Positions 10,671 to 52,000 of a stretch of DNA of 64,000 nt are shown in pieces. The translations under genes were made by a program, and so were the position numbers. This DNA is from Callorhinchus milii (Eukaryota): the NCBI RefSeq assembly GCF_018977255.1, contig NW_024704742.1, forward strand, positions 53,694,001 through 53,758,000, given 5' to 3'. A model generated the notes under the pieces. The model was not told the DNA's origin. It made no database searches and saw only the letters and a list, made by a program, of their open reading frames with translations. Positions within the stretch are counted from its first letter, which is position 1. Every line of letters starts with the position of its first letter.

Positions 10671-10879
10671 TCCACCGTCTATTGTTCTCTTTCATTGTTA
10701 ATGAATAGTTGTTCTTCCAGCTGTTGCTTCCTTTCTTGTGACATCAAACTGACGGGTGTTGCTCTCACTCTTTATCTCTCTGTTGCATTGGCTGTGACAT
10801 GGAATAACTCACCTGCTTGAAGGTAGTGAATCAAATTAGTTAGGTCACAGTGTTCCACCAATACTTCAACTTATTTTCC

Positions 10880-13356: not shown

Positions 13357-15414
13357 CTGAGAAATAATGACAAGAGGGGAAACATGGGGTGGGGAAAGAT
13401 AAAAGAAAAATATATACCGAGGTGAGTTTGGCATAAGCAGTACAAAATAATCAGAACAGGCTTATTGACATTCCCTTTAAACTAGGAAAACAAATAAAGA
13501 CTTATAGAACATCTATTTTGCTCAGATTAGTACTTTTTCAAATCTGTATTGTTCTTCATTGTTCACCTGCAAGTTGTTTTCTTAATGCAACTAATTAATC
13601 ATTGGATTAAGAATGAATTATTTCTTAAACCGCATTTCAGTTGTTAATACATAATTTACTGAAACCATTAAACAAGCAAAGGAGCAATAAATACTAAACA
13701 CCCACAGCTTTTCAGATTGACAAATATCCAAGTTAAGACAGTCATCTAACAACATGATCCTCAGCATCTAATACATTCTGTAAGCTTTGGTGCATTCAAC
13801 CTGAATTTTGATGGTGGCAATGTTCCTTCTTGGCAACGTTCTTAACTGATTGAACAGCAAGATCAGTACAGATGAAGAAGGCCCTTTGGCCCATCTGATT
13901 TCAGCCTTCCCGAACACCCATTCTACCTTCCACCTATCACAGGATCCAGCTGTTTTTTTTAAAAATGAGTCTGGTGTCCTGATAACTTGTTCTAGTCATT
14001 ATTAATAATAATCCTTATATTTGATATAATGCCTTACTGCATCATCAAGATGTCTCATAACTCTTCACAGGATATACTGAAAGTGATGTGGCTGTGTGTA
14101 TTATGTGGGTGAACTATATGCAGTAATTCGAGGTGTGGTCTGACCAGACCGCTATACAGCTTGAGTATGAAGTCTGGGAATCTAAACACAACTGTTTTAA
14201 CAATACAGCCTAGCCTTCTGTTTCCAATGTATTCGTTTATTAATGATTAAATAGTACAAACCTAGAAATAAATAACACAAACAAGACATGTAGGCAATGT
14301 GGCAGTGTTGCTGTTTGATCGCTTTTGCAGCTTCAATCATTAAGAAAACAGACCTTGAAAGAACCTTCCAACAGTCCAAAGCTTGCTGTTCAAATGAAGT
14401 CATTGCATCAGTGATAATGACTAATTTGTCCCGATCCAAGAAGTTATGTTGTTCAGCCGACAGAAACCCATCGTCACGCTTGAGAGTAACCAAACGAGAC
14501 AGAGTTTCATATATGTATGCCACCTACACATGGAAATTTTAATTTGGAATAGAATGGAATGCCCACTTTCACTAGAGAGAAAAAAAAACTAATTTGAGAA
14601 AATATTAGATGCAGGTTAGCAAGACACAAGACTAGCTAGCTAAAACTGTATAGCTTGCTACTGCAAACACTGGCTGATCCACTCAAGAAAAGTATTTCTT
14701 GAATCCATAAAGTTGCCCTTGATCTCTGATCCAGTGCTTCAAATAGATGTCATACATGGATCAAACCTTTAATCCTGTCTTCAATCTAGAATGTTCGGAT
14801 CTGTTTGAGGATTATACAGCTACATACTGGGTTGAAGATCACTCAAAGGGCATAATTGCTGGAAAAATAATCTCCAATGTTAGCTCTTATCTTTTGCAGG
14901 GAAGACCCTGTCTGTCATACCAATACAACAGCTTGAACAGGAGATCTCATCAAAGCTAAAGTCTCTTGAGTTGACATTACGTACATGGTATTCCCTGTAG
15001 AAAACTTATTTTATACCATTATACCACTAGCTACTCTCTAATTAAAACTGGAACGTTTTAATCCCTGAAGTGTTCACAACAACATTAAAAGCCATAGATG
15101 TGAACCATTGATATTAGCAATCACAGACTGCTGACAATTAAAAACAATTACAAGGTGCATTATCTCAAATTGTGTACCCCAAGTATAACTGGCTTCTTTA
15201 TAGCTGTAGTTAAGTAAAAAAGTGTTTGAGGTGTAGATCCATTTCATTGTGCATGTTCAATCAGCTCACTAGCTTCCTGTGTCCAGCCAGCTGTCTCCAA
15301 TGTTAAAATGGCTGTCTTCTAGGATATCAGTTCACTATTGAGACTGTAGCATATGTAAAGATCTGATAAATAGGAAGTTGGCCATTTTAGGTTCTTGTGT
15401 GTTAAAAATAATGG

Positions 15415-16160
15415 ACGTCCAGGTCATCAGGTCATTGCTTCACTACACTAACTCTCTGCTCTAGCCAAACATCCCGACTCTTCCGTCCACAAGCTGCAGA
15501 CCATTCAGAACTCCGCAGCTTGTGTTCTCTTCCGCACCAGGCTCCATGAAGCCTATCACCTCCATTCTTGTCCTGCTCCACAAGCTCTCAACCCCCAGAG
15601 GATTGAGTTAAAGAGCCTCGTCATCACTTTTAAAGCACGCCACCATCTTGCTGATCCTAAATTAGTGACCTTTTAAAGCTATACTAACCCACTTGCTCTC
15701 TCCACTCGGTAGGCACTGGTCTGCTTCACACTTCTGCCTTGCCTGTCCCACCATCGGCAGTCAGGCCTTCAGCCTATCTGCCCCCAACCACTAGAATTCC
15801 ATCCCGGAGTACCTTCACTCTCCTCCCTTGCCTCCTTCAAGGTCTGCCTTAAGACCTTCCTCTTTGACCATGCCTTCAGTCATCCTTCAGATGAAACATT
15901 AAACCAAGGTTCTGTCTGCCTGTTCAACTGGATATGAAAGGAACTATTCCAAAAGATAAGTGCCCTTTCTTCTGGTGCCCAATGACCCCCCTGAATAAAA
16001 TTTGTCATTAACTTCATGACTCTACGTGGGTTATTGCTCTCCCCAAATTTGCTGCTGCATCTGTCTATGTATGACGCAATCACTACGCTTTACAGTGAAT
16101 GTGAAGTGCTTTGAGATGTGCTCCCACATGATAAGCACTCCATCAAATGTAAGTTTTTTT
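15415..16160 (+). mobile_element. Old L2 ORF2 C-terminal fragment (15415-15885) joined to a Deu-like SINE 3' part (15886-16160)
   Basis: cacaagctgcagaccattcagaactccgcagct and cttaagaccttcctctttgacc match the young L2 copies; then cagatgaaacattaaaccaagg..aaatttgctgctgc, the SINE body. Confidence 0.75.
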
Positions 16161-17914
16161 ATATAAATGAAGCAAAAGGGGCTTCTTCACCGGAACCAAT
16201 CCTGTGATCTTGTGAAGTGAAGTGATTGTTCCTTCAGAGAGACAATATACCCATTAGAGGTTCCTTACCTTTATCTGTTATTAAGCAGAAAAGCAACTCC
16301 ATTTGCAAACTTGCCAACTTTGGATAAGAAACAATGCTATGCATGTATCGCTGTTATATTGTAATTTCAGTCAGAAGATGCTGATAGCATTTCAGTCTGA
16401 AGCAGAAAAGGATGAAAACTGTGGTGACTACAATTTGTTTTGGAGGAAACAATTGTGCTCCCAAATCCTATAAAGAAAATTAGATGTACATTCACAATGC
16501 TTCACAACGTTTCAGAAGAGGTCACTATTCCCCTGATGGCATCAGAAGCTTATAAAAACAAATATTGAATATAATTTCAGACTGAAACCTATCTTCATTA
16601 ACCTTGACAAATGACTTGATAGCTCTGCAGGCATTGCAATTCTGCAGTTAACTGGAAGATTGATGGGTTAGGTACAGTGTACATTCTAGTATGCATTCTA
16701 TATTACTACTGTAGTTTGAACATTATGGACAAGTCAGTGACCAAACCACAGTCTAAGTATAAAAGCTTCTCTTAATATGGTGAGGACAGAGGGGTAGGTG
16801 AGTCAATCATCTTATACAATGTTATAATTAACAGACAGAATCGACAAATAATGGCAGAAGCAAATTAATATCAAACTGGAATAGAAAGAGAAAGGAAGAG
16901 TAGATGAAGGTAACTGGAAGGGAAGTATAGGCACTGGCAGTGAGAGAGAGAGAGCAGATATATAAACCCAGAAATTTAGAAAGAATGAAAATGAAAGAAA
17001 AAAATATATAAAGGAGCATGTGAAAAGGGATGAGAATCAAATAAAAATAAAATAAAACACTATTGTATTAGATTTAAACTTAGAAGACTACAGCAAACTC
17101 CTAATAACAAGACCACTACCTCTGAAGTAGCCATGCTATCTATATCCTTGCCATTTTCCATGCAAAATATTAATAAGGGACTCTGCTCGACTTGTCCGTC
17201 CATCCCCTCTCCCCCCCACCTCCCTCCCCACCCTCCACCCTTCTTGATTCCATCCCCCAGCTCACGTGCAACACCTTCATTGTCCTTCCAATGTGAAGTG
17301 CGCTACGTAAATGCAATTTGTTATTGTAATAGTGCCCCTGTGTGGCCCGGGAAGACTTTTGCCTAACCAGCCACTCTGGATAACTAGTCACCGAGGCCCT
17401 TTTCCTTGAAGTGATGAGTTATCAGGAATTCACTATATTTGCTCTGTAAGTTTAATTAGAATGTAAATTTGTGATGTGATAATTATCTTAACCTAACATC
17501 TGTTCTTGGTGATAGCTTTGGAAGGGAACAATCCCAAGTTCAGGAGTTATTATTAATTATTATGATGCTGATGATGTCATGAGTCAAGTGATAATTATTA
17601 TATTACAAATCAAATGTTCCCATTAATATACCAGAACATTATAAAGACAAGTTTGATTAGGGTCAATTTTGTAATATTTCTCAATTAAGAAATGAGGACT
17701 GAGATATTTCTGGTTACTGGAGGGAGTCACAAATCGCATTGAGAAATGAAGCAAAATTGACCTCAATGTTTCCATTCTTCTTCCTGGTGTAGCCAGAGTC
17801 CCAAGATCATTTTGGAGGGGGACATGTATCTTTCTTCCACAGGATTTGACTGTTTTAGATACTGTTCTTCATAGTGTCCACTAATCATGACTAACCATGC
17901 AAATGTTATGTTAA

Positions 17915-18280: not shown

Positions 18281-19607
18281 AGCACATTATTATCTTTCTC
18301 AAGAGACTCATTGGGCTTGATGTTGAAACAGATTTGATTTTGGTGAAGCAATGTAATTTTGAGTAAGGTTTGTAGCTCCTGTGATCTTATGGATAATAGC
18401 TTTTCATCATAATGAGCTCAGTATGAAAATAATTTTGCCTGTACTTTTGCCTGACCATTTTGCCTGATCCTCCCTTCAACTAAAGCATGTTCACTGTTTT
18501 GCTTGTGCTGTAAAACACTGTTTAATCGGTCACCATGGGATCTATAGTGAAGTGGAGAAACATTGAACCCTTTGCATATGATACATTGTAAACTGAACAG
18601 GCTGTCCTCTCCTTTAGATTTCAGATCAAAATCTTTCAAAGGTTTACCTTGCCTGGATAGGTTGCCAACTCAATACTTGGAACTTTGTGAGGTCCCCAAT
18701 GAAAGATATATCCAGGACTGAATTTAACTTAGTTTACAGGGTACACCATTAAAAATGTTCCATTGATAACTATTGTGAGATTGTCAGGCCCTGCAACACC
18801 ATCAAAAGATGAGAGGTTATTGAGAAGACGATGGATGTTTATAAGACAAAGAGTAAATTTGCAATCCAAGAGTGCAGAAAGCAAGTTTGGTTAAAGACAT
18901 AACCAGTGCTGTCTCCTGTGAAGGCTCTAATCAAACAGTCTTGCATTTCCTTCCTTACAATGACAATCATATAGTTAATTAGATTGTATGCCTAAATACT
19001 AAAAGTGTTTTGTCAGGAAATGCCTGGCAATATAATCTTGTTCGTTGAAGTTTTGGAGCTGTCCTCTACCAGAATGTCTAGCTCAAGCTTTTTACTCTTT
19101 AAGTAAATGATTTGAAAGTGCTATCTTCTTTTCTGCTTTACAATACAGACTATTTTTATAAAAACATGCCTTAAGGAGAGGAGACATGCTGTTTGTTCAG
19201 GCAGCAAAACCAACACGTCAAAGTACTATGAAAGATTGGAAGAAGTTTAAAGCTTCCAAAGGACATTGACATTTGTAGGTAGCAGCAGTTGTGTATGAAA
19301 CAATCCTCCAAAAAGAAGAAATTGCACTAGTTTGGACCACAATTCACTGTTAACTGGATTTCTTACACAGGATTTCTTCCAACTTGAAAATCAGTTGCTG
19401 ATAAATCTAACTCTTCAGTTTAATAATACTCTCCACCACCAAGGAACCATGGAAAATAGCATCAACCTAATTTAGAAAGTGTTTCAACTTCTAACCCACA
19501 TGGTAGTCAGAAATCTTTCAAAACTCTTGACTTTTATTATTACAAATTACTCTGGATACTTAATTTGTTTAGCATTAGTAATGGGTATTTATCTGCTTTT
19601 TGCAGTG

Positions 19608-21155
19608 TTTGGTCAGCCAGGTTTATGACACATGCAGAAACCCATCACCATTCTTTACAGTATCTAATGTAAACTAAGTCCCTCCATGCTACTTACACAT
19701 TGATGTTCCTAGCTCTGGAATGGAATCTCCGTGGAGACACAATCTGCTTTCCTAATTGTAGAGGGTATTAGCTATAGATTGGCAAGAGCCAAGGCTTGGA
19801 ACTCCAGGGTATGTGTTGGGGTATTGCTGGAGTTTAACCAGCAAAATCTAATTAGCTTGCCATTGAAAGCACTGCCTGGCAATTTCCCGCAGCTTGTCCA
19901 GCTAGGATTACCATATCCATCAGAGGTTTAGATCAGTTAACAGGACCTGAGTGGGAAGAATCTTTGCTCCCAGTCTGACCCTCCAGGGCATGCCCTGAAG
20001 TACAACAACAACAACAACAAGATTCCATTTATAGAGCGCCTTTCACGTCAGGAGGACGTCCCAAGGCGCTGCACAGTTGGGTCATGACCCGAGCAGGGGG
20101 AAATGGTCAGGGTGAGGGGAGGGAAGGGAGGGAGAGAGGAGGGGGAAATGGTCAGGGTGAGGGGAGGGAAGGGAGGGAGCGAGGAGGAGGAAGAGAGTCG
20201 AGAGGGGAGCTGAAGGCACGGTCAAAGAGAAAGGTTTTGAGACCGGCCTTGAAGGAGGAAAGGGAGGAAGCAAGGCGAAGGCACTGGGGATGGAGTTCCA
20301 GAGCCTCGGGGCTGAGAGGCTGAAGGCCCGACCACCGATAGTAGGGCGGTTGGGGCGGGGGACGTGGAGCAGACCGGAGCCAGAGGAACGGAGGGTACGG
20401 GCAGGTAGGTAGGGGGATAGTAGGTTGGAGAGGTAGGAGGGAGCAAGGCCGTGAATGGCCTTGTAGGTGAGGATGAGGATCTTGAAATCAATCCTCTGGG
20501 GGATGGGGAGCCAGTGGAGGCGAGCGAGGGTAGGAGTGATGTGGTCCCGAAGCCTGGTGCGGGACAGTACACGAGCTGCAGAGTTCTGAATGACCTGCAG
20601 CTTGTGGAGGAGGTGCCGGAAGGCCGGCGAGGAGAGAGTTCCCATAGTCCAGCCTTGAGGTGACAAAGGCGTGAACCAGGGTTTCAGCGGCGTGAGGGGT
20701 GAGGTAGTGCCGTAATCTGGCGATATTCCGGAGGTGATGGAAGGCGGTGCCAGTTGTGGTGCGGATGTGAGGGAGAAAGGACAGCTCAGGGTCGAACAAA
20801 ACGCCGAGGTTCCTGACTGGCTTTGAGAGGTGGAGAGTGCAGCCTTGGATGCTGATGGTGTCAGCGCCTGAGGTGCAGAGGCGCTGACGTGAGCCAATCA
20901 GGAGGGCCTCGGTTTTTCGCACGTTGAGCTGAAGAAAGTTGTCTCTCGTCCAGGACTCGATGTCGGACAGGCAGGCTGCCCATGCTTAGCGCAGGAACCT
21001 GACTACCAAGTTTGCCAAAGAGGTTTGACTCGATTCGAACATTCTGTTGCCAAGCACGTCACCTTGGAGCAAATTCATCTCCAAGGAGACCCTGCTTATC
21101 TCATCCCCAAGGTGAATATACATCGAATTGAGTGGGTAACAGGCACACCCTGCCT
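19608..21155 (-). repeat. Unassigned hairpin-rich interspersed repeat, longest copy (split by L2 at 20002-20980)
   Basis: Collinear similarity to 14445-14578, 34575-34752, 39186-39552, 40589-41122, 44904-45256 and 49950-49997. Strand is assigned from the terminal hairpin plus A-tract on the minus strand. Confidence 0.8.
20002..20980 (-). mobile_element. Young L2 LINE, 5'-truncated
   Basis: [53 protein letters not shown]; (CAA)n tail; near-identical to 57413-58340. Confidence 0.95.
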
Positions 21156-22579
21156 TTTGCATCTAATGTTAAAAACAATAGGTCAGAGATGGCAGAGGTG
21201 AAAAATAAGGTAAAACTCACTCTATAATACCCTGACCAATTACCCCAGCCCAGCTTCAGAAAAGCCTTCTGACTGCATCAGTGTTATCCCTTTGCCTGGA
21301 GCTCCATTCTTTTAGACTATGTGTTTGTAATTGATGTAAAATTAAGGACAATTTCCATTGTGTCAGTAGGGGTTGCTCAAACTGGTTTCACTTAGCATCC
21401 ATATCCGCACAGCTGCCTTTGAACTACAGGTTTTATCTTATTGTTCTGAGTGGTTTGTACCTAGAACATCTGTTCCTAATAAATCTGAGGCTAAAGCGAC
21501 AATGGATTTGAGTAGAACAGAAAGCTGTTTCCATTGTGCTGAGGAGATACATTTAGGATCTACAGTGCAATATTCACTAAAGAATTTAAAAATGCAAAAT
21601 TAAATGCAAAATGCAAGGAGTATTATTACTATTATTATATAAAATGATTTGCAAGCAACATCCCCATCCAATGAACACGAAGGTGCCCTCAGTACAGATG
21701 AGCTGAAATTCTTTACAAATAACCAGGACAAGACAAGTGATCATAGCAGTATGACATAGAGGGAATCCTCAATGGTAGGGGAGAGTATGGCAGAATCCTT
21801 GGTGCCGAGAGGGGGGAATCCTCAGCAGTGAGACTTAGAGAATCCTTGAGAGAGAGAATGTGTGTGTGTTGGGGGGATGGGGGGGAAGGCATTACACCAC
21901 ATGACTGGGGGAAGCACTCAGAAATGTGACTGAGAGTTTGAGCCCTGCAGACAATTACAAAATCAGTTTGAATAATGATAGATAAAATTGGAAGTATAGA
22001 GGTGTGATTTATTGAAATAATGTTCCTCATATAGGTTTTGATGTAGAGCAGAATATTCTTTGAGAAAAATGTGAATGCTACATGTACATTTCTCAAATAC
22101 CATTTTTGATATTCGAGACATGTACATGAGATATTTGAGACATGTTTATGCAGTACATAAAATTAAAATCAATATTGATTTTATCACATAATTATTTGAC
22201 AAGTCAAGTCAAAGTTCTTTTAGCTCTGAGTCACTCTCTGAAGCCATGTTCTGTGCAGGTCAAAAACGAACCTGACCTTTGCGTAGAGCCATTATTTTAC
22301 TTCCAATACAATTATTAATTGATAATATGTTAAATGATGGAGAAGAACCAAAGGAAATCTAAAAAAGATAAAGTGAATCTGAAAATTGCCATCTAGTCTC
22401 TCCAATTTTCTCACTTATACTCACTTCTATGGATGTACAAACCATTTTGTCTGGGTCTTGACCTTATATTTTAAAAACGGATATGTTTGAAGCATTCCTT
22501 TTCTGCATTATCCTTCACTGAGAATACAAATCCCCAGATACGTAAACTCAACCACTGTTTCCAACTGTTTTTTATTGTT

Positions 22580-32230: not shown

Positions 32231-32646
32231 GCTGCTGCCAAAAAGCAGGGGAACTATAATTACAAATAATAAAAGTTGGTAAGGTTACTTGGCCAGTAAA
32301 AACTGAGCATAAAAACTCACATCTACAGGACAAGGAGTCCTGTAGCTCAGTCGTTAGAGTATTCTCCTCGCGAACGAGAGACCTGGGTTTGATTCCCGGC
32401 AGGGCGAAACCTTGGGCAAGTTTGCTTGCTCCACACGCCTGATAATAATCCCTCAAGAAAAAAAACAATAACAAATTGGTCACTTCAAATCACGACTGTT
32501 TGTGGGACACCGCTGTGCGCAATTGGCTGCTGCGTTTCGCCCACAAATATACAGTCAATTCACTTTACAGTCTATTCTGTGAAGTGCTTTGAGATGTCGA
32601 GAAAACTTGAAAAGCCCTATATCAAATACAAGGATTATTATTATTA
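32231..32646 (+). mobile_element. Short tRNA-derived SINE (A and B boxes, Deu-like core, L2-like tail) with ~107-bp 5' extension
   Basis: A box tagctcagtcg; B box gtttgattcc; core gctgtgcgcaattggctgc; tail tatatcaaatacaaggattattatta. Confidence 0.9.
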
Positions 32647-32895
32647 CAACAACAACAAAATACAAGAATAAAATTACATTTGTAAAGCGCCTGTCATGTC
32701 GGGAGGGTGTCCCAAAGCGCTGGACAGACAGAGTTACTGACCTGAGCTGGGGGTCGGGGTGGGGGAGGGGGGAGGGCAGGGAGATTGAAAGCAAGTTTGA
32801 GATGGGTCTTGAAGGAGGCAAGGGTGGGGGCGAGCTGGTGGGACTGCGGGATGGAGTTCCAGAGGGTGGGGGCAGAAAGGCAGAAGGCCCACCGC
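32647..32895 (-). mobile_element. L2 3' end, tail-to-tail with the preceding SINE
   Basis: AFCLSAPTLWNSIPQ..FKTHLK; its (CAA)n tail abuts the SINE's (TTA)n tail. Confidence 0.85.
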
Positions 32896-34574
32896 ACTAT
32901 AATGTATAAATATTGGAAGACATTCACATTTAATTATGCTGAAAATATATTCCAGCAATCTTTGTGGGCAGAAAGGGTTCTACAGTCCCTGGGATATCTC
33001 TTAAAACATTTATATGTTTTTCAGAATAAAAAAAATATGAAGGAGACTCTGTTGTGAGTCTTTTAATAACCTTCACTTTGAAATCCTCCTCATTCTTTTG
33101 TACCAACCCATCCATAACCTCAATGGCAAATGCCTGAATTCCACAGCTCAACTATATGTTTGTGATGAGTATTGTTTTCATTTGGTGCATAATGATGCCC
33201 TGAGTTAAAGCAAAGCTGTTTCCCTGACTGCTTTGCTTAGGGTGAGTGTATTGGCGAGGAAGCTGATGATCCTATTTACATAGAACAAAAGCCTCTACTC
33301 GGGCATGAGACGATAATAAAACAGGATTTTAGAGTAAGTACAATTATGTGTTGCATAATGCATGGAGAAAGGATGTTGCTTGCAGAATTGAATGAAAAAA
33401 TAAGGTAATCAGAAACCCCAGTGGCTATTATATAGCAATAACATAACAGCAGGGGTGCAGAAGCCCAATTACTGCTTGATGGTCTTTTAAATTTATGGTC
33501 CAAGCACAGTGAGTTCATGCATGTTCAAATTCTGTTACGACTATTAATATACACAAATTCCTATTAATTTTAATTAATCTGATGGCTCTGTAAGTCTTTT
33601 ATGCTCTCCCTCATTTGGGGAGAAATTCCACCGGCCTCTGGTTTTACTCTATTGATGTAGTATGACAGAGCATCTGGAAATCGGCAAATTTTTAAACTCC
33701 AAATTTTGAAGCTTCTTTTTTCAAAGTTCTTTTCTAAAAATTGCAAAAGTTAAGGCTGAAATCAACAACTGCTCTAAGAGGCTACATAAATAGACTGAGG
33801 ACTAGACCAAGGATACATTTCTCCCTGTAAAGAGTGAATCCCTTGAAGTTGGGCTCTTGTTAAATAAAAATCTATAATTAATAGAGGAAAAGTCATTATG
33901 TGCACACCAATTGAAGCTGGTATGGTGTAAAAGGATATCATTAAAGCTAATAATGATAATTATTCTAACAATGAGAAGTTGTAACTAGCTCCTCATGAAA
34001 ATTTTACCTTCAGATAAGTATAAAGGACAATTTTGTTTCCCATGTAATTTTCACCCCTCTTTTGTTGAAGCTACTGACTCAATTTGGGGTACAATACAAT
34101 AGAATACAATATCATTAACATTTGTACAGTGCTTTTCATGTCCATGGATGCCTCAAACCCCTTAAGAATGCTGGATGGCATCTAAGCTGGGGGTGAGAGT
34201 CAAGGGAAAGATGACTGAAAGTACGATTAGAGGAACATTATGAGATATACCATGAATAAGGGTATATATAAGGGTATAGTAGTAATTAGTATAATTAAGT
34301 TCCCAATAAAAGGCACAGCAAATGATTGAAGGCCTGATTTTGTCACACAAGCCTCATTGTAACACTTCTAAAGTGGCAGATTTTTCACTAACTTTATTTT
34401 TGAATGTATTTTTGAATGTATACCATCCACCAATATCCTATCCAATGTTATACAAATGAAATATAAGAACACAAAAGATGTACAATCTCTTTCCTTTTTT
34501 GTTCCAGTGGAACATGTTCCAGTGCCACTTCTTGTAATACCAAGATACCCTTGAGTTAAACTGGTAACCTGTGA

Positions 34575-34752
34575 TGAGATTGGCTGATATGTCATCAGCA
34601 GTGCTCTTGAGTACTGTGGACCTGCCTGGCTCAGGAACTGGACTACCGAGACCACCACAGAAGATTGACTCAATTCAATCATTCTGTTGCCAAGCACATC
34701 ACCTTGGAGCCAGTTCAATTTCAAGGAGATCCCACTTACCTTCACACCAAGG
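34575..34752 (-). repeat. Copy of the unassigned hairpin-rich repeat
   Basis: caggaactggactaccgag..attctgttgccaagcacatcaccttggagc matches 20990-21090 and 41015-41120. Confidence 0.8.
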
Positions 34753-37700
34753 AGGATCATGACTAAATATTTTTTTCTGCTGCGAAAGAAAACACAAGTT
34801 AAATGTGTATATTTGTTATATTGAATTTCTTTCATCATTATCCCTAATGCATTTACTCTGCTATAATAATAATAAAATATAATATACATTGTGGAAGAGA
34901 ATTACACATACTAACCAACAGCAATGTAAAGAAATGTACGGAATGGCTGATGTTTTTTGAGACACCAACGCACATAATATCAGCATGCGTAAAATGATTA
35001 GGCCCCCATGAAAAGAGGCCTGTTTCATCTACTGGAAACTCTTTCCACGATTGACTCAGTGATGTGCTGTATAGTAAGGATAATGATGAAGGAATTTCTA
35101 CATGTATAGAACATTTAGGTATATATAGATTGTGGGTTGTTTAGTAGCTGAAAAATTACTTTGCTGAACAAGAATAGAAGGAATGCTTTATACAATTATT
35201 TTAAGATTTCATGCCACCTCTGGCCATTGCACTAAAAAAAATCAGCAAGTTTCTGTCTTGAATACCAAACAATTCTGTTTATAGTTTTCCTGATACTTTC
35301 TATTTTTGCACATAGAAATGCAACACTCTAAATGCATAATTTAGCTGGAACCTAGTTTCCATTCAGTGACTAATGAAGTGTAGAATAATGATTTGCTGTA
35401 CGGTGGAACTTTTAGTCAGGATCAGTGTCTGGCTGTTTTCCAAGTCCTGAATGTCAGGTCACAAGAGACTATATGATCAAAAAGTGAAAACATATGTAAG
35501 GTAGCTCTGATAATCCTGATAGCATGATCAACCAGGAGGGAATAATCAATTAAGCTCCTTTCATAAAATATGACACCTCCACTCTATGCCTCCACTCTAC
35601 CACAATCTGCAAAAAAGCTATTGTGTGAAGTCTCATGAAGTTGGGTTCTCCTCCCCAACCCCCTCAGCAACCATCCCCAGCATGGGGTCCCAGCAGCAAG
35701 GTCAAGCGCTTTGAGACATGCTACTGGCATGAAAGGCACTATATAAATATGTTGCATTGTTTAAGGCTAAGGTTCATCAAGATTATGAGGATACCGTAGC
35801 CATTTATTGACTTGGCAACTATAAGAGAAAATCTGGTTCCTTGTTCTCATAATAAAAGGACAGATTACCATTCTAATCATTGAGTTTAGTCTGACATTTT
35901 ATTAGATCATAGAAACGTTTGATTCCCATTTCCTCATCTTTTCTTCATATCCCTTAATATCTTTAATTTGCCATAGGAATATTGGATGTTAATCTCCCTC
36001 ATCCATTTTTGGCATCCAGTCTGCCCTACTGAATGAGAATTGTGTCCCATGGTGTTCTTCGAAAAAAGAATGGAGTTTTTCCCGGTGTCCAGGTCAACAA
36101 TTCCCCAATGAGATTGATCATTTAATGTTGTTTGTGGGGCATTGCTGTGTGCAAATTGGTTTTCACCCACAAAATACACAATACTACAGTGTATTCGGTG
36201 ATGCTTTGAGACATTCCATTGACAGGAAAGACGCTACATCAAATGTAAAGATTATTATATGCGCTATAGTTATCCATAGATAGTTCATTAGATATAATAA
36301 TGCATATTAAAAAAGCACTAAGATGTAAGAATCAAAACATTTTATACAAAGGGTAATAGACTAATTGCATTTATTTATTAGTGCATATCGGCATCAAATA
36401 AGTCAACTTCTTCTGCCCTTTGGTACAGTGGAACATGTACAATAGCGGCACAAGAAGTAATAAAAATGCAACATCATAACCACAAAGTTTAATTCCCAAT
36501 TACATTAAGCCCTTCTTGTGGCTATCGGTGATAAGTGTGAAAAGTTAACAGAAGTTGATTGTAACAATTGTGCCCATCTCCCCCTCGGTCTTGGAAGATA
36601 GCATATCTTCAATGGAAGAAATCTCTACAATACTATACAAGATGATTTGTAAAAACAGAAGTTTCAGCACAGAAGTAGACAATTTGACTTATGTCTATGA
36701 ATAAAAATAAATAAAATAATAATAATTTGGTAACTCAATCCATGACTGTTTTGTGGGATACTGCTGTGCTGCAGTTGGCTCACACGTTTCGTCCAAAAAG
36801 TAGTTAATTAACTTTCCATATATTCTGTGAAGTGCTTTGACATGTCTCAATGATGTGATAGGGCGCTATCACAAAAGCAAGGATTATTATTATATATTAA
36901 TATCATTAATAATTGATCTAGTCCCATTCCCCATTATTTCCTAATTTTTTCAATGTGGTGAGAAGTGTAATTTATGCTATAATTTATGATATTCATTTGA
37001 GTCCTTTTGGTTAGCCTGAGAGGATTCATTGGGTTTGACAATTTTTGAAAGTTGTTAAAGTGTGATAAAAAAACAAGGGAGCCATGGGGAGATGGTATGG
37101 AAAAAATACAGAAGAATGGAACTAAATGGAGCTCTTTCAGAGAGACAGCACAGGAAAAAAGACTGAATACCCTTCCCTCTGATCTGTAAATTTCTTTGGT
37201 TTCTACATTACAAATTAATGTTTTTCCTTTTCACATCTCCCAAATGAAATCTCATTTTTAATGTTCTCACACTTATGCATAAGATGGCAATGTCCCTAAA
37301 TATACAATAATAATCGTTGCATTTGATACAGCAGCTTATCACGTCATTGAGATGTCTCAAAGTGCTTCACAGAATATACTGTAAAGTGAATTGACTTTGT
37401 ATTGTGTGGGCGATACATTGCAGAGATCCAGAGATCTGATTCTGCCTGCTTTTTATCTCCACGAAAACTCAATCAGGATTGAGAGTTTACCTTTATTCAG
37501 AATGGTTAAACTCAAGCACATCGTATTGGTGAATAACTTTAACAAGTGTGTTATGTTGGACAAGGCAACTGTTGATAAACAATCACACTTTTTTGAGTAT
37601 TTTGTTATCAGCAGTTTTATTACTTAACAGGTCTTCCTTGACTTTGGTTGCACCATGGAACCTCACACGGTTAAACCACACAGTCAATTCTGCACGACAA

Positions 37701-38829: not shown

Positions 38830-39170
38830 TATCGTATCTGTATTAGAAGATTATGGGTTCAAATCCAAAGTCACGTGCTGCATTGTTAGAAGTGCTGACC
38901 TCCAGATGAGCTGTTAAACTGAAGTCCCATATGCCTGTTCAGGTGGACATTAAAGATCCCACAGCACTACCATGGCACTATTTGAAAAGAGAAAGGTATT
39001 GCTCTCGGTGTCCAGTTAACATTTTCGCAAATAAAATTTTCATGCATTCATTACTGTGTACAAATTGTCTGCTGCATTTGCTTACAAACATACTGTCACT
39101 ACACTTTACTGTATATTCTTTAAATATCCATTTATATGAAAGTGCTATATCTAATACAATGGAAGGATTT
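38830..39170 (+). mobile_element. Long Deu-like SINE
   Basis: cagatgagctgttaaactgaag..caggtggacattaaagatccc body; tgtgtacaaattgtctgc core. Confidence 0.75.
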
Positions 39171-39185
39171 AAAATATATATATAA

Positions 39186-39552
39186 TTTTTGGGCAGCCGG
39201 GTGTCTGACACATGCCCATCACCGTGCCCATTAAGGGATTTCCATGCATTCCATGCATTCTACACATGGAAATCCCAGAGATAGATTGTTGGAATGGAAT
39301 GCACACTCTCTCCCGGAGGGATCCATCCTGCTTACCTAATTCCAGAAAGTATTAGGCGCAGGTTGGCAAGAACCAAGGCTTGGGGACCCAAAAGTGTGGG
39401 TTGGGGTACTGCTGAAGTCTAGCCAGCTAAAACAGCGCAGCTTGCCATTGATAACACTGGCCGGCAAGCTTTCTCACTGCTTGTCCAACTGGGTTCACCC
39501 TACCCATTAGGCTTTCGCTTGCAAAGTTAACAGGAGCTGAGTGGGATAACTT
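39186..39552 (-). repeat. Copy of the unassigned hairpin-rich repeat
   Basis: tttttgggcagccgggtgtctgacacatgc start; ggttggcaagaaccaaggcttgg; gttaacaggagctgagtggg. Confidence 0.85.
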
Positions 39553-40588
39553 CCTATATCTAGTAGCTTAATACCTCAAACTGCATGTAGTGTCAGGAGC
39601 AACAACAAGATTTACATTTTAGGAGCAAGACTCTTCTTCAGTTTTTCTAGGCTCTATCCCATTATATTGTTTGTCTGATGGCAAACATGCAGTGTAAGCA
39701 CAGCCTGCCTCAACCACCTCTTTGGTAATCCATTCCAGTTGTAAATCACCCACTTTCTCAATCCCAATTTAAAATCTTAGATACCATTACAAAGAACCCT
39801 CTGAAATGTCTCCTTGTCCAAGACTGGAGAGCCCTAGCCTGTCATATATCTGATCATAGTCTTGTTGCTTTAACACTGGAGATCATCCTTGTTGCTCTCC
39901 TTTGCACTGTCTCTAATTTCATGCTCATCTTAAAAAATACTAATAGGATAAAACTTACTTTCACGGATCATTTCCAGAAGAAAGCTTCTCAACAATTTAT
40001 CATTGCACCTCAAGTCAAAGAATAAAATCTGCACTAATTCAGCATTCAGTTGATTAATCTGAATATGCCCAATATTTGGAATACATTTAACACTCATTCT
40101 TTATGTCTAAATAAATATATTTATTAATTCACATACTATTGTCCCCAATATTATTTATAGTATTCAGTATGTTTTGTAGATATTATTGAATAGAAAATGC
40201 ATGAATATTTCAAAACGTATAAATCTTACAGAGAAGTTATATGGGGACTTTATAGACCCAATAAAAACGACGACCAATTTCTCCACAGCAGTTATTTTAC
40301 ATGCCCTTGCTTAAAACATTGATGACTGTGAGAGTGTAGTAGGATATAGGTTGATGGTTAATGTTTTCGCGCATGATAAATTTGCTAAGTTCATGTTCCC
40401 TAACAGAGGGAGATGTTGAGAGGAAGCCAAGATCTATCTTATAGAAAGCACAAGAAGCTCAAAGAGAATCAACTCTGGGCTGTTCTAGTTAAATGCAACT
40501 GACTGCTCCTTATACAGGAAAATTAGCAGATGTCTGTCAGAAGGTCTCTTGTCTGTAACCCGTAGAAACAACTTCTACAATTGGTGTA

Positions 40589-41122
40589 TTTTTTTATCAC
40601 CAAGATGTTTGACACAAGCAGAAATTCATCACAATGCTCAAGATTATCCCAACTAAACTGAGAGTTCCACATATGTATGCCACTTACATGTGGAAACGTG
40701 CCTGTGTCTGGAATGGAATGTGTACTTTCTCCCTGGAGTCACATATCCTGCTTACTTAATTCCAGAAACTTTTAGACATAGGTTGGTAAGAGCCATAGCC
40801 ATTGACCCCAGATTGAATGTTGGGGTTACTCCTGGAATTTAATTACCTAAAAATACCTTTGAGGTTGCAATTGAAAGCACTGTCTGGAAACCTTCCCACT
40901 GTTTGTCTAGCATGGACCACTTTACCCATTAGGAGTTTGGCTTATAGGGTTAATAATAGAATTCCTGCCCCCAGTGATCAGTCTTCCTCTCCAAGTCTTG
41001 CCACCAAGCCAGGCTGGCTGGTTTGTCATCAGCAGTGCTTTAGATTACCACGGACCCGGCTGGCTTAGTAACTGGACTATCGAGACTTCAATAGAGGGTT
41101 GACTCAATTCTAACATTCAGGT
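40589..41122 (-). repeat. Copy of the unassigned hairpin-rich repeat, ~335 bp into the intron after the 102-nt exon
   Basis: Collinear with the 19608, 39186 and 34575 copies. Confidence 0.85.
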
Positions 41123-41456
41123 GCTAAAGGGCAGGATAGATTTAAAAGTAAATAAAAAAGAGAAAGAATAAAATCACACAAATAAAGGCTGGGAAAGTTA
41201 ATGAATATTAAGGGAGCGTTTAAATTTATTTAAAAAAGCATTCTTGACCAAATCATAAAATAAAATATTTTTAAAAATATATATACTTAACAAACAAATG
41301 TATTTATTTTTAGACAATCGATCTGCAGATTTACCCTAGTGGTATTGAAAATTTTGAATTACAGTTTATTTAGATTTAGATGCCTATTTAACAAATAAGT
41401 TAAATAAGGGAAATTGTTCATTATATTTTTTCACTGCCTGGACAGTTCCTACTTAC

Positions 41457-41558
41457 CTTTCTTGACTGAATTTCTTTGACGTACAACGGAAGAAGGAACT
41501 CAGATTTGCCTTCCAGCCGAACACCCTGATTTGTGATTCTCAGGTTTCCCATCCCGTC
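41457..41558 (-). CDS. SGCZ: Zeta-sarcoglycan internal coding exon (102 nt, phase 0-0)
   Basis: Minus strand reads ttttcctttcctgtgattgcag|GACGGG...AGAAAG|gtaagt. It encodes [34 protein letters not shown], the post-transmembrane segment of gamma/delta/zeta sarcoglycans. [12 protein letters not shown] fits the zeta paralog as I recall it (delta has FLQPLYAKEI, gamma FLFPLYAKEI). Confidence 0.95.
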
Positions 41559-44500
41559 CTGCAATCACAGGAAAGGAAAACATTTTATTTGAAAAATATG
41601 AGCATTACAAAACCCAGACAAATAAAAGACTACCGTTTCTTTGATAAATCATGTCTTGAACAAATAGTTTAAAGATTGCATGTAGATTATTATTACTCCC
41701 TGCCTCAATCTCTCCACCTTACCCCTTCTTTATCTGACTTCAAATCGCACCTGAAGAATTTTCACTTCGACCATATTTATAGTAACTTCCCTTCTCTCCT
41801 TGACTTGTGGTCAAACTCCCCATTATTCAGCACTCCACACAATATGAAGGACGCTGAATAAATATAAGTTATTGTTGTTATTATCCCTAGTGACAAGCTA
41901 GATGTTAATTGTGGGTAAGTAACTCTTCAATCTGTCCCTTGCCCTATCTGCTGTCCATTCTAAACCAGTTGCAGCTACATACTTACTGAGGCTGTTCAAA
42001 AAATATTCTGTGTGTTGCAAGAGATAAGTGTTCGTAAGCCCTTCTGTTGTCAGAAATTAGATTCCTTCCAGGAAAGAAATCCTGTTTGCCAATGAAAAGC
42101 CAATTTGGAGCATGAAGGATGGCAGCAGAAACACAATTGCATTGTCTTCACTCCAATCACAAGATTTTAACGTTGATGTCTACAAACATTTTTATTTCCA
42201 GATTCCAGAACTAATCTCGTCAAAATATTGTGATTGCAAAGATTGTGATTGTATTAAGTTTTTCTCCCATGATTTGATTCTCACAGCATTACTCTTTTCT
42301 ACATTCTTCCTCCTCCTCCCCTAAAGTGCGATGACGGTTTATGCTGTTGTGTCGTTTATTTCCGCTTTTCTCCTCCCCTGAAAGTGTTTGATTCCCTATT
42401 ATTCCTCCAAATAGGGCTTGTTTTATATTGGTACCTAATCCAACTGACTGTTATTTATGTGTGAGCCTTGACTGTAAATATTGGCAGGCTGTTTGATTGT
42501 GGGAGACATCAAAGCCCATGCTATCCTCACTGAACATCTGCCCACTAACACTTTCAAGTAAGGATTAGGAATTGAAATCCTGGTCGATTTTCCTTCTTAA
42601 TACAGAGTTGCTACACCACATCTGGTTCTCTGGCTGAGACCAGCCAACTCAACACCAATTAACGTTTGAGCCTCATTTTAGCTTGATGCCTTAACTAGTC
42701 CGTCAGGGTGTTCCATTATCATTTCGGGATTGATATCATTAAGAATAATCTGTACACTGGTACAATTTGGGCTCTTTAAACTCAATAGATTTCTGACTTG
42801 GTACAAATGCCTGGCAAGCCTTTTTTCAATTATTTTTGCAAGCTATGGCTCAAATGCTATGGCTCAAGTTCCATCCAAACATAAAGTAACAATGCAGCAC
42901 TTTACTGCCAGCATCTGGGATATCAACCTATTTCAGATTGAAGGGCCACTCAAACATTCCTCTCCATGATCCATTACAACAATGGCCAGTGGTTAGTGGC
43001 TGGAACTGGTATGGTGGCAGCTGGTGAGGGTTCAGCTAGCTTTAAGCCAAACCATCATGCTGAGGTCAGAGACATACATGAGAACCTAGGAAAAGGAGGA
43101 GCCCATGGAGCATGCTTCAACAGTTTATTAGTTCTTGGTAAAATCTTTTAATCTCAATTCATTGTTCTTTTCATCCATTTACATCCACATTTATACCCCA
43201 AATCGGTTGAAAATTTTCAACTGAAATTCTTATGTTTCACAACATATTCAATGTGATATCACAGCGAATCTGTTCTGAAAGTCTTATTTTTCACCCCACT
43301 TCTGCGTGAAATCATCAAAATGCCACAGAACTCTCCGTTTCTTCTCCTCCTACCCCCAAACAAAACAAACTAATGAAATCATGGAATATCATTTTACAAA
43401 TCCACAGCCCTTTAAACAAAAAAAGGCAGTGGAATTAATCCAGTCCATTTTATACAGTCAGTGACTTACCTTCATGTATATTTTCCACCGTTAAAGAAAA
43501 CTAAAAGTCGTTTGGAAAACCTTTAGTGTGTCTTTCACACATTGCAATGCAATGATGCAATTGACTTTGATCTTTGCCTTTGTATCATGAAACAGCAACT
43601 GCATTATTTGGATGCAAAGTCATTGTGACAAAACTGCCTCCAGGAGATTAGTCTCTCTGCTGTTCTCTCTCATCAACAATTGAGCTATTATAACATCCTT
43701 TGAAAATGAAATAGTCAAAAGAACATGATAAATGTAGCATTGGACTATATTTCAAATACATATTTCTCCATAATGTGCAGCAAATTAAAATAGTATTTGT
43801 GATTAAGAGACAGCAATGGGTCAATGGAAGATATTGCATTCTGAAACTAGCCCAAGCTCCATCAGGTCTGGGAATACTTGATGGTGTGGAGCCAAAGAGT
43901 GGAAAACTAATCTACCCTTCAGTGCTGACATCAACCCCTTAAAATCCAACAAAACTCTATTTTTTAACAATGGAAGGTTAAATATTTTAAAGATGTACAT
44001 AGTTAAGTTATACTCCACCATGTTAATCAAGATGTTAAGGTTTGAATAGTAGAACATAAAAGAGGCTATCAGAATGGGCAGGAGGATGGCAAATTAAGTT
44101 TAATATAAGAAAATACAAAAAAAATCATTTTGACTGGAAAAGTACAGAAGCCGTCTATATGGTTGGAACCTAAGAGGAGTGGAGAAGCAAAGAGATCTGG
44201 GGTTTCCGAGTTCCAGTTCAGACTTGCTATTCTGTGATATCCTTGACAATGGAATAGCTTGCCTAAAGGATGGTCTGAGAGTTTTGAATGGATCTCACAG
44301 GAGACTGAATCCAGTGCAATTCACATCCACCTCATTTGCACGTGATGCTGCATGGGCACAAATCACTAGGCTCCTGTAAACACTTCTTGCAGGTGTTGCC
44401 AAATGCATGGATCCAGTGTGATTTGCAGTATACAAGATACCATATTTATTGCATGTTTGACAGTGAATAGCTGCCCAAACCGCACTGATCTACTACCAAA

Positions 44501-44903
44501 CATGCAGTATAAACGCAGCATTAACAACATCAATAACTAACATTATTCCTGCGCTGGTCAGCGGATCTCCACTGGGTTCCAGCTTGTGCAATTTCAGAGT
44601 CAGAAGTATAAATTAGATATATTATTTCTCATTGCTTTACAGTTAGAAAAGTGAAAAAATGGACAAACTAGGCACTTAGGAAAACATTAGCCATAATTTT
44701 TGTCTTTTGTATATTGCTCTTTAGAAGAACTGTTAACTGTTCATTTCAGAGACTATTTTATGGCTTAACAAATGGCCCTCACATAAATTCACTGCATAAA
44801 TTTCTCCAAACACTTAGACTTTTCACAGTAAATAATGGTTTATTCTACATTTATACCTCACTACAGCTAATCAGCCTCTGAAATGTTTCTCTCCCACATT
44901 TTC

Positions 44904-45256
44904 TTTTGGTCAGACAGCTGGCTGACATGTGGAAATCCGCCATCATGCATGCTTATGAGTATCCAAATAGCCTGAGAATTCCGTATATCTATGCCAGCTA
45001 TGCATGGAAATTTTGCTGTCTCTTTCTCCCTGGAGAGATGCAACTAATTCTTCCATACTTAATTACGGAGAGTATTAAACGTAGGAAGACAAAAGACAAG
45101 GTGTGGGGACCTCAGAGAATTCTTTGGAATACTGCTGGAGTTAAACCAACGAGAGATTACCACTTGACAAGCTCCTGCTGCTTGCCTCGTGACGATCGCC
45201 CTGCCAATTAGGCTTGGAGGTTAACCGAGCTGAGTGAGAATAATCCTGTTCCCAGT
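44904..45256 (-). repeat. Copy of the unassigned hairpin-rich repeat
   Basis: ttttggtcagacagctggctgacatg start; actgctggagttaaacc; gttaaccgagctgagtgagaa. Confidence 0.75.
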
Positions 45257-45338
45257 GTATATCATTGATTGTACTGATTGGAAATGTTTGATGAGGATGT
45301 GTAACAGTCAGATCTCCAGAGCAAGGCAGAGTTTCGAA

Positions 45339-45757
45339 GCTGCTGCCAAAAAAGCAGGGGAACTATAATTACAAATAATAAAAGTTGATAAGGTTACTTG
45401 GGCAGTAAAAACTGAGCATAAAAACGCACATCGACAGGACAAGGATTCCTGTAGCTCAGTGGTTAGAGCATTCTCCTCGCAAGCGACAGATCTGGGTTCA
45501 ATTCCCAGCAGGGCGAAACCTTGGGCAAGTTTCCTTACTCCACATGCCTGATAATAATCCCTCAAGTAAAAAACAATAATAATTTGGTCACTCAATCCAC
45601 GACTGTTTGGGGGACACTGTTGTACGCAATAGGCTGCTGCGTTTCGCCCACAAAATATACAGTTCATTCATTTTACAGTATATGCTGTGAAGCACTTTGA
45701 GACGACTGGAAGACATGAAAAGCGCTATATCAAATGGAAGGATTATTTTTATTATAA
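45339..45757 (+). mobile_element. Short tRNA-derived SINE with the same 5' extension as the 32231 copy
   Basis: A box tagctcagtgg; B box gttcaattcc; near-identical to 32231-32646 from the first base. Confidence 0.9.
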
Positions 45758-47600: not shown

Positions 47601-47624
47601 TTAGTACAATGTGCCAGGTTATTT

Positions 47625-48469: not shown

Positions 48470-49030
48470 CCTACAGTTGGTTCAGCTGGTAGCATTCTAG
48501 TCTCTGGGTCAGTGGGTTGTGGATTCAAGCCACACATCAGGATCTGAGTTCATAATCATGGCTAACACTGTTCGGAGTGTAATACTACAGCATTGGACAT
48601 GCTGTTTTTCAGATGAGATATTAAACTTGTAACAAAGGGCAAAGTACTGCAGATGCTGGAAATCTGGTACAAGCACAGAAGTCGCTAGGAACATGCAGCA
48701 TCCATGGAGAGAGGAAAATGAGTTAACGTTTTAGGTCAATGACCTTTCATACCCTGTCTATCTATTTATATGGACTTTAAAGATGCCAACAACAACAACA
48801 AATTACATTTGTATAGCGTCTTCCATGTTGGGAGGACGTCCCAAGGCACTGATGTCCAATAAAACCCCGCTCAATCCCAAGACACTAATTGAGAAGAGAA
48901 GAATGTTTCTCCCAGTTTCCATTCATCTCATGATTGTTTGATTATTAAAGTGATTATTCACTTTATGGTTGTAGTAATTACCTGTGAAGTGCTTGAGACA
49001 GCATAGTATGTTAGGACACTACGAAGTCCT
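48470..49030 (+). mobile_element. Long SINE carrying two insertions: a Penelope-like fragment (~48630-48750) and an L2 tail (-, ~48787-48850)
   Basis: The SINE body cagatgagatattaaac is interrupted and resumes at ccctgtct..aaagat, is interrupted again by aacaacaac..cccaaggcac, and resumes at atcccaagacactaatt. Confidence 0.65.
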
Positions 49031-52000
49031 TTCTTTCAGCTTCTCAATACCTGAATTCACATTCATGTTACTCTGACCCAATTCAAACTATCATGGTTTG
49101 AGGCCGTGGTTTTGCAGTCTGACATGACATACATGCTGAATATGTGCTCATGGCATATTTTCAATTGTCAAGTTCTTTGTGAACTCCTTTTCCTCTAAAT
49201 CCTTGCTCCTTTGTTTTAGCGAATAATAATCTCTTAAGGGGCTGGTTATCAAATTCTTTCTAAAAATTCAAACAGATGACAACCATCAATGTTTTAACTC
49301 TGTGAATCTGTAATAATAGTCACACTGTGAAGGTGCAAACAGACAATTCAAAAGCCAAGTCTGTGGCAACTGAATCGTAATGAAGTCAAATGTTGTCTCT
49401 TTTTAACATTTTGGAGATAAACTGTCGAGCTGTGACCTTCAAATCTACAATTTGTTAGGCAAAAATAGTACAGTTCTGTTTTGTGAAATTTTCTTCACGC
49501 ATAAGCATCCTTTTGATGAGCTTTTTATATGTAAAATATTAAAACTGGTGTCGCAGATTGAATTTGATTTGACCCATCAGCAGGGAATCAAAGCAAAATT
49601 AAACTAAGCAACAGCTGGCTCACTCATCCATTTCGATTGTGCAGCCTATAGTAAAACCAGATGTGGATTCCCTAAATATATTAGATCCTGATTGAAATTT
49701 ACATAAAGCTTATTGTTTGAATATGACAAATACATTTTGTTGTATGTAACAATTTCAGAAAGACACAGTCCATCCAGTCTAACTAGCCAATTTCCCACAA
49801 GATTCCTTCATTATCCAACAATAATCTTTGCATTTCATACAACACTTTGTCACACCGTTAAAATGGATCAAAGCACATCCCTATACACCGTATTGATTGT
49901 ATTTGTAGCAAATGTGGCAGGCAATTTTGTGCACAGCAATATCCAAATATTTTTGGTCAGCTGGGTGTCTGACACATGCAGAAATCCATCACCATCATCA
50001 TGTGAAAGAGTTTCCAAAGTAAACTGATAATAATAATAATAATAATCCTTACATTTGATACCGCTACTTACCACATCATATCTGATCTCCATTACATTGA
50101 CAATATAGCCCAGCATCCTGTTTTCCTTGTTTATTGCTGTTTCACACTGTTTTTACATGGTGAGTGATGAGTTAACTAACTCCTCTGGATCTCTTCAGCT
50201 TGCCCCCCTTGGGAGGTTCTATCCCCATCTATGCAGTACGTGTGCTTCCTATATGCAGTATCTGCAATTTTTGTGTTTTGAACTTCACTGAACGCTTGGA
50301 TGCTCCACTATAAAATGAGATCAATTTGAATTGATTCCAGTGAATTGATTACTCAGAGCAATCTAAAAAGGAACAATTGCAGATATCAATATGGAAGCAG
50401 AGACTTTTGGAAAATCCAGGTAAAATGAAAGACAGTAAATCGAACCTCAGCAAAAGTCCAGAATCAGAGGCACCAATCACCACCAGCTCAAGGTGGAAGC
50501 GTACAAGGAAAACACTGATCAAAGACATTTCCCAAAGACAAGAGAACCAACTACAAAAGAAAACCATGACAGTCCAAAGTTGAAGCTAGGCTAGTGAAGA
50601 CTGATCAAATACCTTACGCCACAGACAAACCATCTTCTAAATTTACAAGAAACTGTCAACCAGCAACTCATCCGCTGTCACCTTGTTTCTGTGAAGTGAC
50701 ACCTTAAGTAACAAAAACTTTGTGACACAGTAGCTCAGTAGCTTACAAAGCCTCATTCAGTAATTAGGTGCTAGAAAAGGGAAATATGGGACCCTTACAT
50801 CCAGATAAGTAACCAGCTCCAAACTAATTCTATATTCAGATAATTATATAGAGAAGGCTTGAAAAAATATCAGGAAATCTCAGGGATTTTCCTCCAAACT
50901 GATTCACGCAGGCAGACTCAGCTCAATAATATAATTCCTTCGGTTTTTCAACATTATTTTAATGCAGGCAATTGAATTAATGAATAGGATAAAACTCAAA
51001 ACCTGATAATTGTTCACACATCCTCAAAATGTTCTGCACTCTTAATGCAAGGATTATTATTATTATTAATGTCCCTTTGAAAGTTACATTCTTAAAGCTG
51101 CACAGAATATTGATATACAGCATATTCATATACATGAGACAACAAGCCTGTAAAACATTCTGCTCCTATGCATCAATTGACATCTACTGATGGTCTGTAA
51201 ATAGCTGGAATACCATTGGAATAAACAGAATATAAAACTGTGTAAGCACAGTTTAGAGTTGACAATTATTTGGCTGGTAAGAGCTGAAAGCTGATGTAAC
51301 TGAGACACCATCTTAATTCTGATTTTTTGTTTGGAAAATAAACACCCTCCCCATTAGACAAGAAAGATGACAACAACAACTACAAAAAACAACAAAATTA
51401 CATTTGTATAGTGCCTTTCACATTGGGAGGATGTCCCAAGGCACAGGACACACTTACTTTGGAATGTCAGTTACATCCGTTCTTTGAAACAAACACCAAA
51501 CTGATAGCTGAAGCAAACCATGGCTTACTTCTGTGCAGTAAACCAATTTGCATGTTAGTTAAAAATGCCATTTTAGCTTAGGATGGAAACAGATTAATTT
51601 GTTTGCTTTTGTGTTATAAATAGTCACAGTATATAAAAGAAACTACATACAAAGCTGTACAAAACTAACGGATTGCTGCAGAGAAATATACCTTTATTTT
51701 AGTCATTTAAAGTGCATTATATATGATGAAAGGAAGTCATTATTGGATGGTAAATAGATTTCTCTCACTTGGCTGCACTCACTAAAACACTACATAATTA
51801 GCATCTCATCAGAATTTATGTTATGGAAATTGCCTATATAATGTAGATATCCATTTTTCATTATTTACTAACTATGGCCCTAAGCTTTGAGGTACCAACA
51901 AATAAATGAGGTTATTCGTTACTTAGAAAATGCACCAGCCTTTGGTTGTCCGTACTTGTACAGGTAAATTTACCAACAAGTGGAGGATAATATGGGCCAA

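Follow-up and report, generated by a model that had tools for sequence, protein, structure and literature searches.

A 64,000-nt stretch of the Callorhinchus milii genome (NCBI RefSeq assembly GCF_018977255.1, contig NW_024704742.1, positions 53,694,001 to 53,758,000 of the forward strand; hereafter the window, with positions counted from its first letter) carries seven dispersed copies of one repeat, which are most likely ordinary old retroposon fragments. Specifically, they are probably the dead, 5′-truncated 3′ ends of an old and abundant A-tailed long interspersed nuclear element (LINE), that is, of a non-LTR (non-long-terminal-repeat) retrotransposon. The sequence is probably the 3′ untranslated region (UTR) of such a LINE; a headless non-autonomous element is a tentative possibility.

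Identity and placement of the copies

A profile search of the window with nhmmer placed the copies at 14448-14683, 19606-19984 plus 20977-21129, 34567-34757, 39186-39564, 40590-41128, 44903-45258 and 49950-50027, and self-BLAST agrees with the profile searches on a single repeat in seven copies. All of them are collinear and in the same orientation (7/7), as had been proposed in a first-pass annotation made by eye from the sequence. When pieces of the copies were held out of the profile, nine out of nine were found again (E 1.4e-13 to 1.8e-61), and a reversed-sequence control gave no match below E 3.6. On the opposite strand nhmmer found no copy in the window, only self-palindromic minus-strand matches inside the copies (E at least 0.38). 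With a leave-one-out sensitivity of E 1e-13 or better, any opposite-strand copy would have shown; therefore the 7/0 count is no by-eye artefact, and the earlier caveat that such copies might have been overlooked does not apply.

Pairwise identity among the copies is 58-79% and their 400-nt flanks are unrelated in all six cases compared, and the copies are therefore independent insertions. Local duplication as their source is ruled out by these flanks and by the absence of a tandem array of the element. With the two halves of the model joined, the element measures ~630-650 nt instead of the ~0.7 kb first estimated. The region 19608-21155, previously given as one copy, is indeed one copy, but it includes a younger L2 insertion of ~990 nt (Table 1), which makes the repeat family older than that L2. 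The 3′ end of copy 3 is absent or beyond recognition.

A fixed end and variable truncation

Five of the seven copies start at the same base after a T-run of 5-9 nt on the plus strand, or six if the reduced copy 1 is counted, while the far ends lie near consensus positions 77, 310, 401, 403, 555, 620 and 630-650 (nhmmer). Read on the minus strand, this is an element with a fixed 3′ end, made of a small stem-loop and an A-tract, and with variable 5′ truncation. Six copies had been said to begin with the T-run and an adjoining motif; five do start cleanly, but the copy at 14448 has lost part of its first hairpin and the copy at 34567 is without the T-run end. The likeness of the minus-strand stem-loop and A-tract to the 3′ end of a retroposon, also pointed out at first pass, fits with the fixed end, the variable far end, the dispersed high-copy family and one candidate target-site duplication (TSD). 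This candidate flanks copy 2, where 33 further nt separate it from the end of homology, and it is equalled by 2 of 1500 random stretches for the same flank and by 15 of 1500 random pairs. LINEs ordinarily show 5′ truncation, to 100-1000 bp, as well as 3′ stem-loops (PMC3747384), and LINEs and short interspersed nuclear elements (SINEs) dominate this type of genome according to the available part of PMC4350176.

If the copies are LINE tails, the RNA of the element would read on the minus strand of the window and end in the small stem-loop and A-tract. The protein of the second open reading frame (ORF2) would nick genomic DNA, prime reverse transcription on the 3′ end of the element and usually stop early, in the manner of target-primed retrotransposition (TPRT), and such early stopping would leave a common 3′ end and upstream lengths differing between about 75 and 650 nt. 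The chained 5-8-bp stems would have belonged to the active RNA tail, plausibly as a handle for ORF2 or as a stability element, and would have been decaying since insertion.

Abundance in the genome

Contigs of public sequencing runs were placed on positions 38850-41700 (2851 nt) at 80% likeness. From the DNA-like run X1, 31,746 of 6,922,088 records were placed there. Against a summed depth of 9.2 on unique DNA, the top two bins over copy 4 have 174,500 and 224,410, the top bins over copy 5 have 4,458 to 12,172, and the adjacent SINE tail has 52,149; by the warning of the tool itself, none of these values is a copy number. Depth on copy 4 is ~20,000-fold the single-copy level and exceeds that of the neighbouring SINE; at four orders of magnitude above single copy, the repeat is therefore a genome-wide, high-copy family. 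The joint from 39546 to 41007 is bridged by ten contigs of X1 and five of run X7, so that the two halves of the element are collinear at other loci too. By hand arithmetic, seven copies per 64 kb extrapolate to ~100,000 per Gb, and the 22 SINE tails in the window to ~340,000 per Gb. The latter figure is of the same order as the 302,861 (CmiSINE) and 218,294 (SacSINE1-CM) insertions that the available portion of PMC5499810 reports for C. milii, and there is therefore no local enrichment to explain. A search of sequencing runs restricted to near-identical matches found the stretch, or part of it, in 5 of the 24 rows listed, under one organism label and with no RNA run among them. Between copies 4 and 5, a small depth peak at 39810-40001 (~1,075 in X1 vs 9) marks a further low-similarity repeat.

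The family also occurs in protein databases. The translation of its far end matches the C-terminal end of a COPS5 gene model from C. milii (P0001, UniRef100_A0A4W3GE79; E 3e-10), in which residues about 270-363 (~90 residues) are the translation of a gene-sense copy of the repeat, probably through an annotation error or an exonised copy.

Structure of the element

The repeat had been called highly structured, and this is true only in part. The named 5-7-bp stems do exist, with 78.4% of 167 cells paired as against 24-42% when the partners are slid, in a stem model drawn from the same copies on which it is scored. But RNAalifold returned 0 consensus pairs on the gappy six-copy alignment, and whole-copy folding z-scores (+1.7 to -2.9) are like those of control repeats (L2, SINE), which reach -2.7 to -3.0. 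The warning that the apparent covariation of the stems may be false was right: among 40 pairs in six copies, a sample of low power, two changed on both sides compared with 1.7 ± 1.1 in shuffles, and the covariation score is 0.057 compared with 0.060.

When the majority letters of other genomic copies were put into copy 4 (at 16 of 17 places, from 40 of 115 rows), all three broken stems were mended and the minus-strand z-score of 39330-39546 moved from +0.65 to -1.45; the stems are therefore ancestral and now decaying. The 12-bp stem at 39235-39276 (15 bp with G-U pairs on the minus strand, z -2.95), which had been listed with the others, is present in copy 4 but is not part of the family: it occurs in one of the six aligned copies, and the left arm at this place differs in other genomic copies (4/4 runs with loose ends before 39260). 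Apparently the stem arose through a short deletion between TTCCA repeats or through a template switch. The loop of the consensus GCTTGCC/GGCAAGC hairpin and a stretch ~150 nt off share 10 nt of complementarity (40874-40885 and 41030-41042, covered by two to three copies), where a pseudoknot or an alternative fold is possible judging from the letters.

Searches for affiliation

Rfam 15 gave no match at the gathering threshold over the window and none on the element at E ≤ 10 (copies 4, 5 and the far end of copy 2); sub-threshold matches lie only outside the element or at its edge. Two origins had been put forward, an old non-autonomous retroposon or a retroposed structured non-coding RNA (ncRNA); the old retroposon fits the anatomy, but the ncRNA is without any Rfam match at these thresholds. 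The absence of a tRNA head and of CR1/L2 similarity was borne out. No tRNA, 5S or signal recognition particle (SRP) match was obtained from Rfam at E ≤ 10 on 20950-21400, the tRNA heads in the window (Rfam, ARAGORN) are only at 32336, 45445 and 56308, none of them on the element, and neither self-BLAST nor profile searches detect similarity to the L2, CR1 or SINE copies or tails of the window. A B-box-like 9-mer can be read at 21031-21039, without a matching A-box or T-arm.

One minus-strand frame is open over the far ~220 nt (0 stops in 73 codons), being open in copies 2 and 3 and having one stop in copy 5, and it has no Pfam or database homologue besides other copies of the repeat. The only matches of profile searches with the translated far end were to a host gene model with faulty splicing, to a fragment of 68 aa and to one repeat protein that is unrelated. 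The match to P0003, a repetitive protein (E 1.5e-5), was dismissed as spurious. A hammerhead was also considered, as the minus strand contains a CTGATGA word, and was rejected for want of an Rfam hammerhead match at E ≤ 10 over copy 5. Motifs of the element have 0 matches in metagenome contigs and 0 in prokaryotic genome contigs, and five viral loci matching a 17-mer were taken as chance, there being no further similarity (best E 0.29). No description of the family was found in the titles and abstract openings of the literature covered, and six 17-18-nt motifs of the element did not occur in the literature text searched, with most subscription papers outside the coverage in both cases.

Host gene and orientation

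The host, a minus-strand sarcoglycan gene, is recognised by Pfam PF04790 on both exon translations (E 1.8e-7 and 4.7e-4; both matches are below the curated cut-off, on short translations of 34 and 29 aa), and we take it to be the zeta paralogue (SGCZ). Copies 1-5 sit within the 28-kb intron between the two exons of Table 1.

All seven copies are in gene sense, with a nominal P of 0.016 that is post-hoc and concerns one family in one window. The controls occupy both strands, as had been claimed, and each is compatible with 50% (sense/antisense: L2 8/7, CR1 6/4, tRNA-SINE tails 8/14); together they are gene-sense in 22 of 47 cases, which against 7/7 gives a Fisher P of 0.012. The count and nominal P of the first-pass annotation stand, but allowing for four families P becomes ~0.06, and one such run is to be expected somewhere in a scan of 161 windows of the same genome (probability ~0.9, by hand arithmetic, if there were a seven-copy family in each). 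With a regional bias of 60-70%, the single-window chance would rise to 0.03-0.08; in mouse, the orientation of L1 and SINEs tracks replication-fork direction, as stated in the accessible section of bioRxiv 10.64898/2026.06.23.733924. The 7/7 co-orientation is thus most likely a chance run singled out afterwards, perhaps helped by a modest regional insertion bias. Retention in sense orientation, as had been suggested, finds no backing in copies with neutral-like decay, no stem covariation and a post-hoc P of 0.016, and since there is one window only, a true sense bias cannot be shown here.

Alternative explanations

Several observations weigh against reading the copies as LINE tails. No join to a reverse transcriptase open reading frame was found in the window or by profile searches of protein databases with the far-end translation, and the open frames at the far end match no Pfam family. 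A TSD candidate was found in one of five copies searched, the other four being without an adjacent one; it does not end at a TTTT/AA-type nick, and the T-runs are short (5-9 nt) and decayed. The gene-sense orientation is opposite to the antisense bias of mammalian L1 in genes (PMC5717806 and PMC3828378, in the parts available). Moreover, homology breaks off in copies 2 and 3 at almost identical points (21116 and 34757), within a few nt of each other at the CACCTTGG/CCAAGGTG stem, and the two protein-database copies, P0001 and P0002, start matching near the same 5′ point, which hints at a discrete 5′ boundary. This boundary and the missing link to ORF2 in the far-end Pfam and profile searches would suit a retroposon that is a discrete, non-autonomous unit of ~630-650 nt, for instance an internally deleted LINE derivative, SINE-like but with no tRNA, 5S or 7SL head. 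It would insert by the same mechanism, mobilised in trans by a LINE via its structured 3′ end; full-length copies would then exist, and copies 2 and 3 would extend to the genuine 5′ end. Such an element is rather unlikely, albeit worth serious thought. It would have no RNA polymerase III head (tRNA, 5S and SRP being unmatched), copy 2 extends 33 nt beyond the supposed boundary to its candidate TSD, the strong stem may itself stall reverse transcriptase, and the starts of the protein-level matches may reflect frameshifts or a splice point. At the same end of copy 2, an 11-nt inverted repeat (21027-21037/21123-21133, perfect with the letters of copies 3 and 5) surrounds the far-end hairpins: the ancestral RNA may have had a long stem here, or a small inversion may have taken place at the 5′ junction.

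If the plus strand is read instead, the copies could belong to a non-autonomous element that moves as DNA, of Helentron/Helitron2 or tyrosine-recombinase type, whose hairpin chain and common orientation would be accounted for by single-stranded transposition at replication forks. Helentron/Helitron2-type elements have a T-run, a 5′ terminal hairpin, a subterminal inverted repeat and a hairpin at the other end, and they are not known to make a TSD. The T-run followed immediately by a 5-bp hairpin and the hairpin cluster at the far end recall this layout, and the shared orientation of the copies would suit it; yet a candidate TSD, of a kind not known from such elements, flanks copy 2, the far hairpin has no clear subterminal inverted repeat beside it, the copies are not arranged in tandem, and this type of genome is described as poor in DNA transposons in the available part of PMC4350176, so that an origin of this kind appears improbable.

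It is more improbable still that the copies are an exapted or selectively retained structured RNA, be it sense copies kept because their hairpins act in pre-mRNA or a retroposed ncRNA still processed from introns. The 7/7 gene-sense count (P 0.016; Fisher 0.012) would be in keeping with this, and the COPS5 copy is gene-sense as well, though the search could find only that orientation. Three runs guessed to be RNA also have contigs with family sequence, at depths relative to DNA of 0.31, 0.36 and 0.035; but these resemble the depths of the adjacent SINE in the same runs (0.33, 0.34 and 0.026, by hand arithmetic and, per the tool warning, a poor expression measure), and do not single the family out. 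In these runs the unique intron is uncovered and the exon is covered in two of the three, and as their contigs carry neither strand, start, end nor level, they were not used as evidence. Against retention speak also the missing covariation and consensus fold, the absence of an Rfam match, the truncation and internal deletions of the copies and their interruption by L2, and stems that the family majority preserves better than copy 4 does. A hairpin-chain family with a genuine genome-wide gene-sense preference in introns, arising from insertion coupled to the direction of transcription or replication or from tolerance of sense copies, is a slim prospect; such a gene-sense-biased family would possibly be a headless 630-650-nt non-autonomous element of uncatalogued type.

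Comparison with known elements

In common with A-tailed APE-type LINEs (L1/Tx1 group, as described in the accessible parts of PMC5203782 and PMC4494074), the element has a fixed 3′ end with a short A-tract, variable 5′ truncation, dispersed copies and a candidate TSD, as well as an untranslated tail of several hundred nt; in contrast to them, no ORF2 is linked to it here, its tail exceeds the average of the window in GC content and in palindromes, and the local orientation is not the antisense one of mammalian L1. With the tails of stringent-type LINEs and SINEs (such as UnaL2 and ZfL2; PMC3747384) it has in common a small stem-loop, probably the part that is recognised, immediately ahead of the 3′ terminus. 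However, those tails end in microsatellites and show compensatory changes, whereas this one ends in an A-tract, shows no covariation among six copies and is unlike the L2 tails of the window. CmiSINE (SINE2-1_CM) and SacSINE1-CM of C. milii are, in what is accessible of PMC5499810, likewise old and very abundant retroposons with a similar divergence range, but they have a tRNA head and an L2-2_CM tail, whereas the element has neither and does not align to the SINE copies of the window.

If the copies are indeed LINE tails, they would add one more old LINE-type family to the repeat library of cartilaginous fishes, of use for masking and as a neutral clock, and the repeat probably already corrupts one public gene model, that of COPS5. 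A discrete, headless, structured non-autonomous retroposon would, if real, matter more, and a genome-wide sense bias in introns, if true, would point to a rule of insertion or retention opposite to that of mammalian L1.

Table 1. Coordinates of the repeat copies, of associated insertion features and of the host exons in the window
Feature	Position	Strand	Remarks
Copy 1	14448..14683	-	3′ ~300 nt, internal deletions, first hairpin partly lost; nhmmer; leave-one-out E 7.6e-24
Copy 2, 3′ part	19606..19986	-	T-run on plus strand, terminal GTCAG/CTGAC stem, hairpin chain; leave-one-out E 1.8e-61
Younger L2 LINE fragment inside copy 2	19987..20975	-	90.6% identical to 57409-58339; self-BLAST, open reading frames
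Copy 2, 5′ part	20976..21149	-	longest extent known; homology stops near 21116-21129
Copy 3	34567..34757	-	only the 5′ ~200 nt of the known element; leave-one-out E 1.2e-37
Copy 4	39186..39556	-	3′ ~400 nt; nearest to family majority; private 12-15-bp stem at 39235-39276
Copy 5	40589..41128	-	3′ ~555 nt; two halves joined without interruption
Copy 6	44903..45258	-	3′ ~400 nt; nhmmer; leave-one-out E 4.1e-36
Copy 7	49950..50027	-	last ~77 nt, abuts (AAT)n SINE/L2-type tail at 50025-50079; leave-one-out E 1.4e-13
Candidate TSD beside T-run of copy 2	19593..19604	+	12 nt, 1 mismatch to far copy
Candidate TSD, far copy	21150..21161	+	partner of 19593..19604
Host sarcoglycan exon	41457..41558	-	bounded by AG/GT; sets gene sense as minus
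Next host sarcoglycan exon	13270..13356	-	Pfam PF04790

Other features of the window

The tRNA-headed SINE copies at 32231-32649 and 45339-45757, which are 88% identical over 421 nt, also have in common ~105 nt upstream of the head, which suggests a 5′ extension or a small duplication. Two CR1 ORF2 fragments (3715-5424 and 61078-62763) lie on the same strand and are 88% identical over 1.7 kb, and a degenerate minisatellite with units of 11-13 nt built on CTAGA words occupies 10882-11389.

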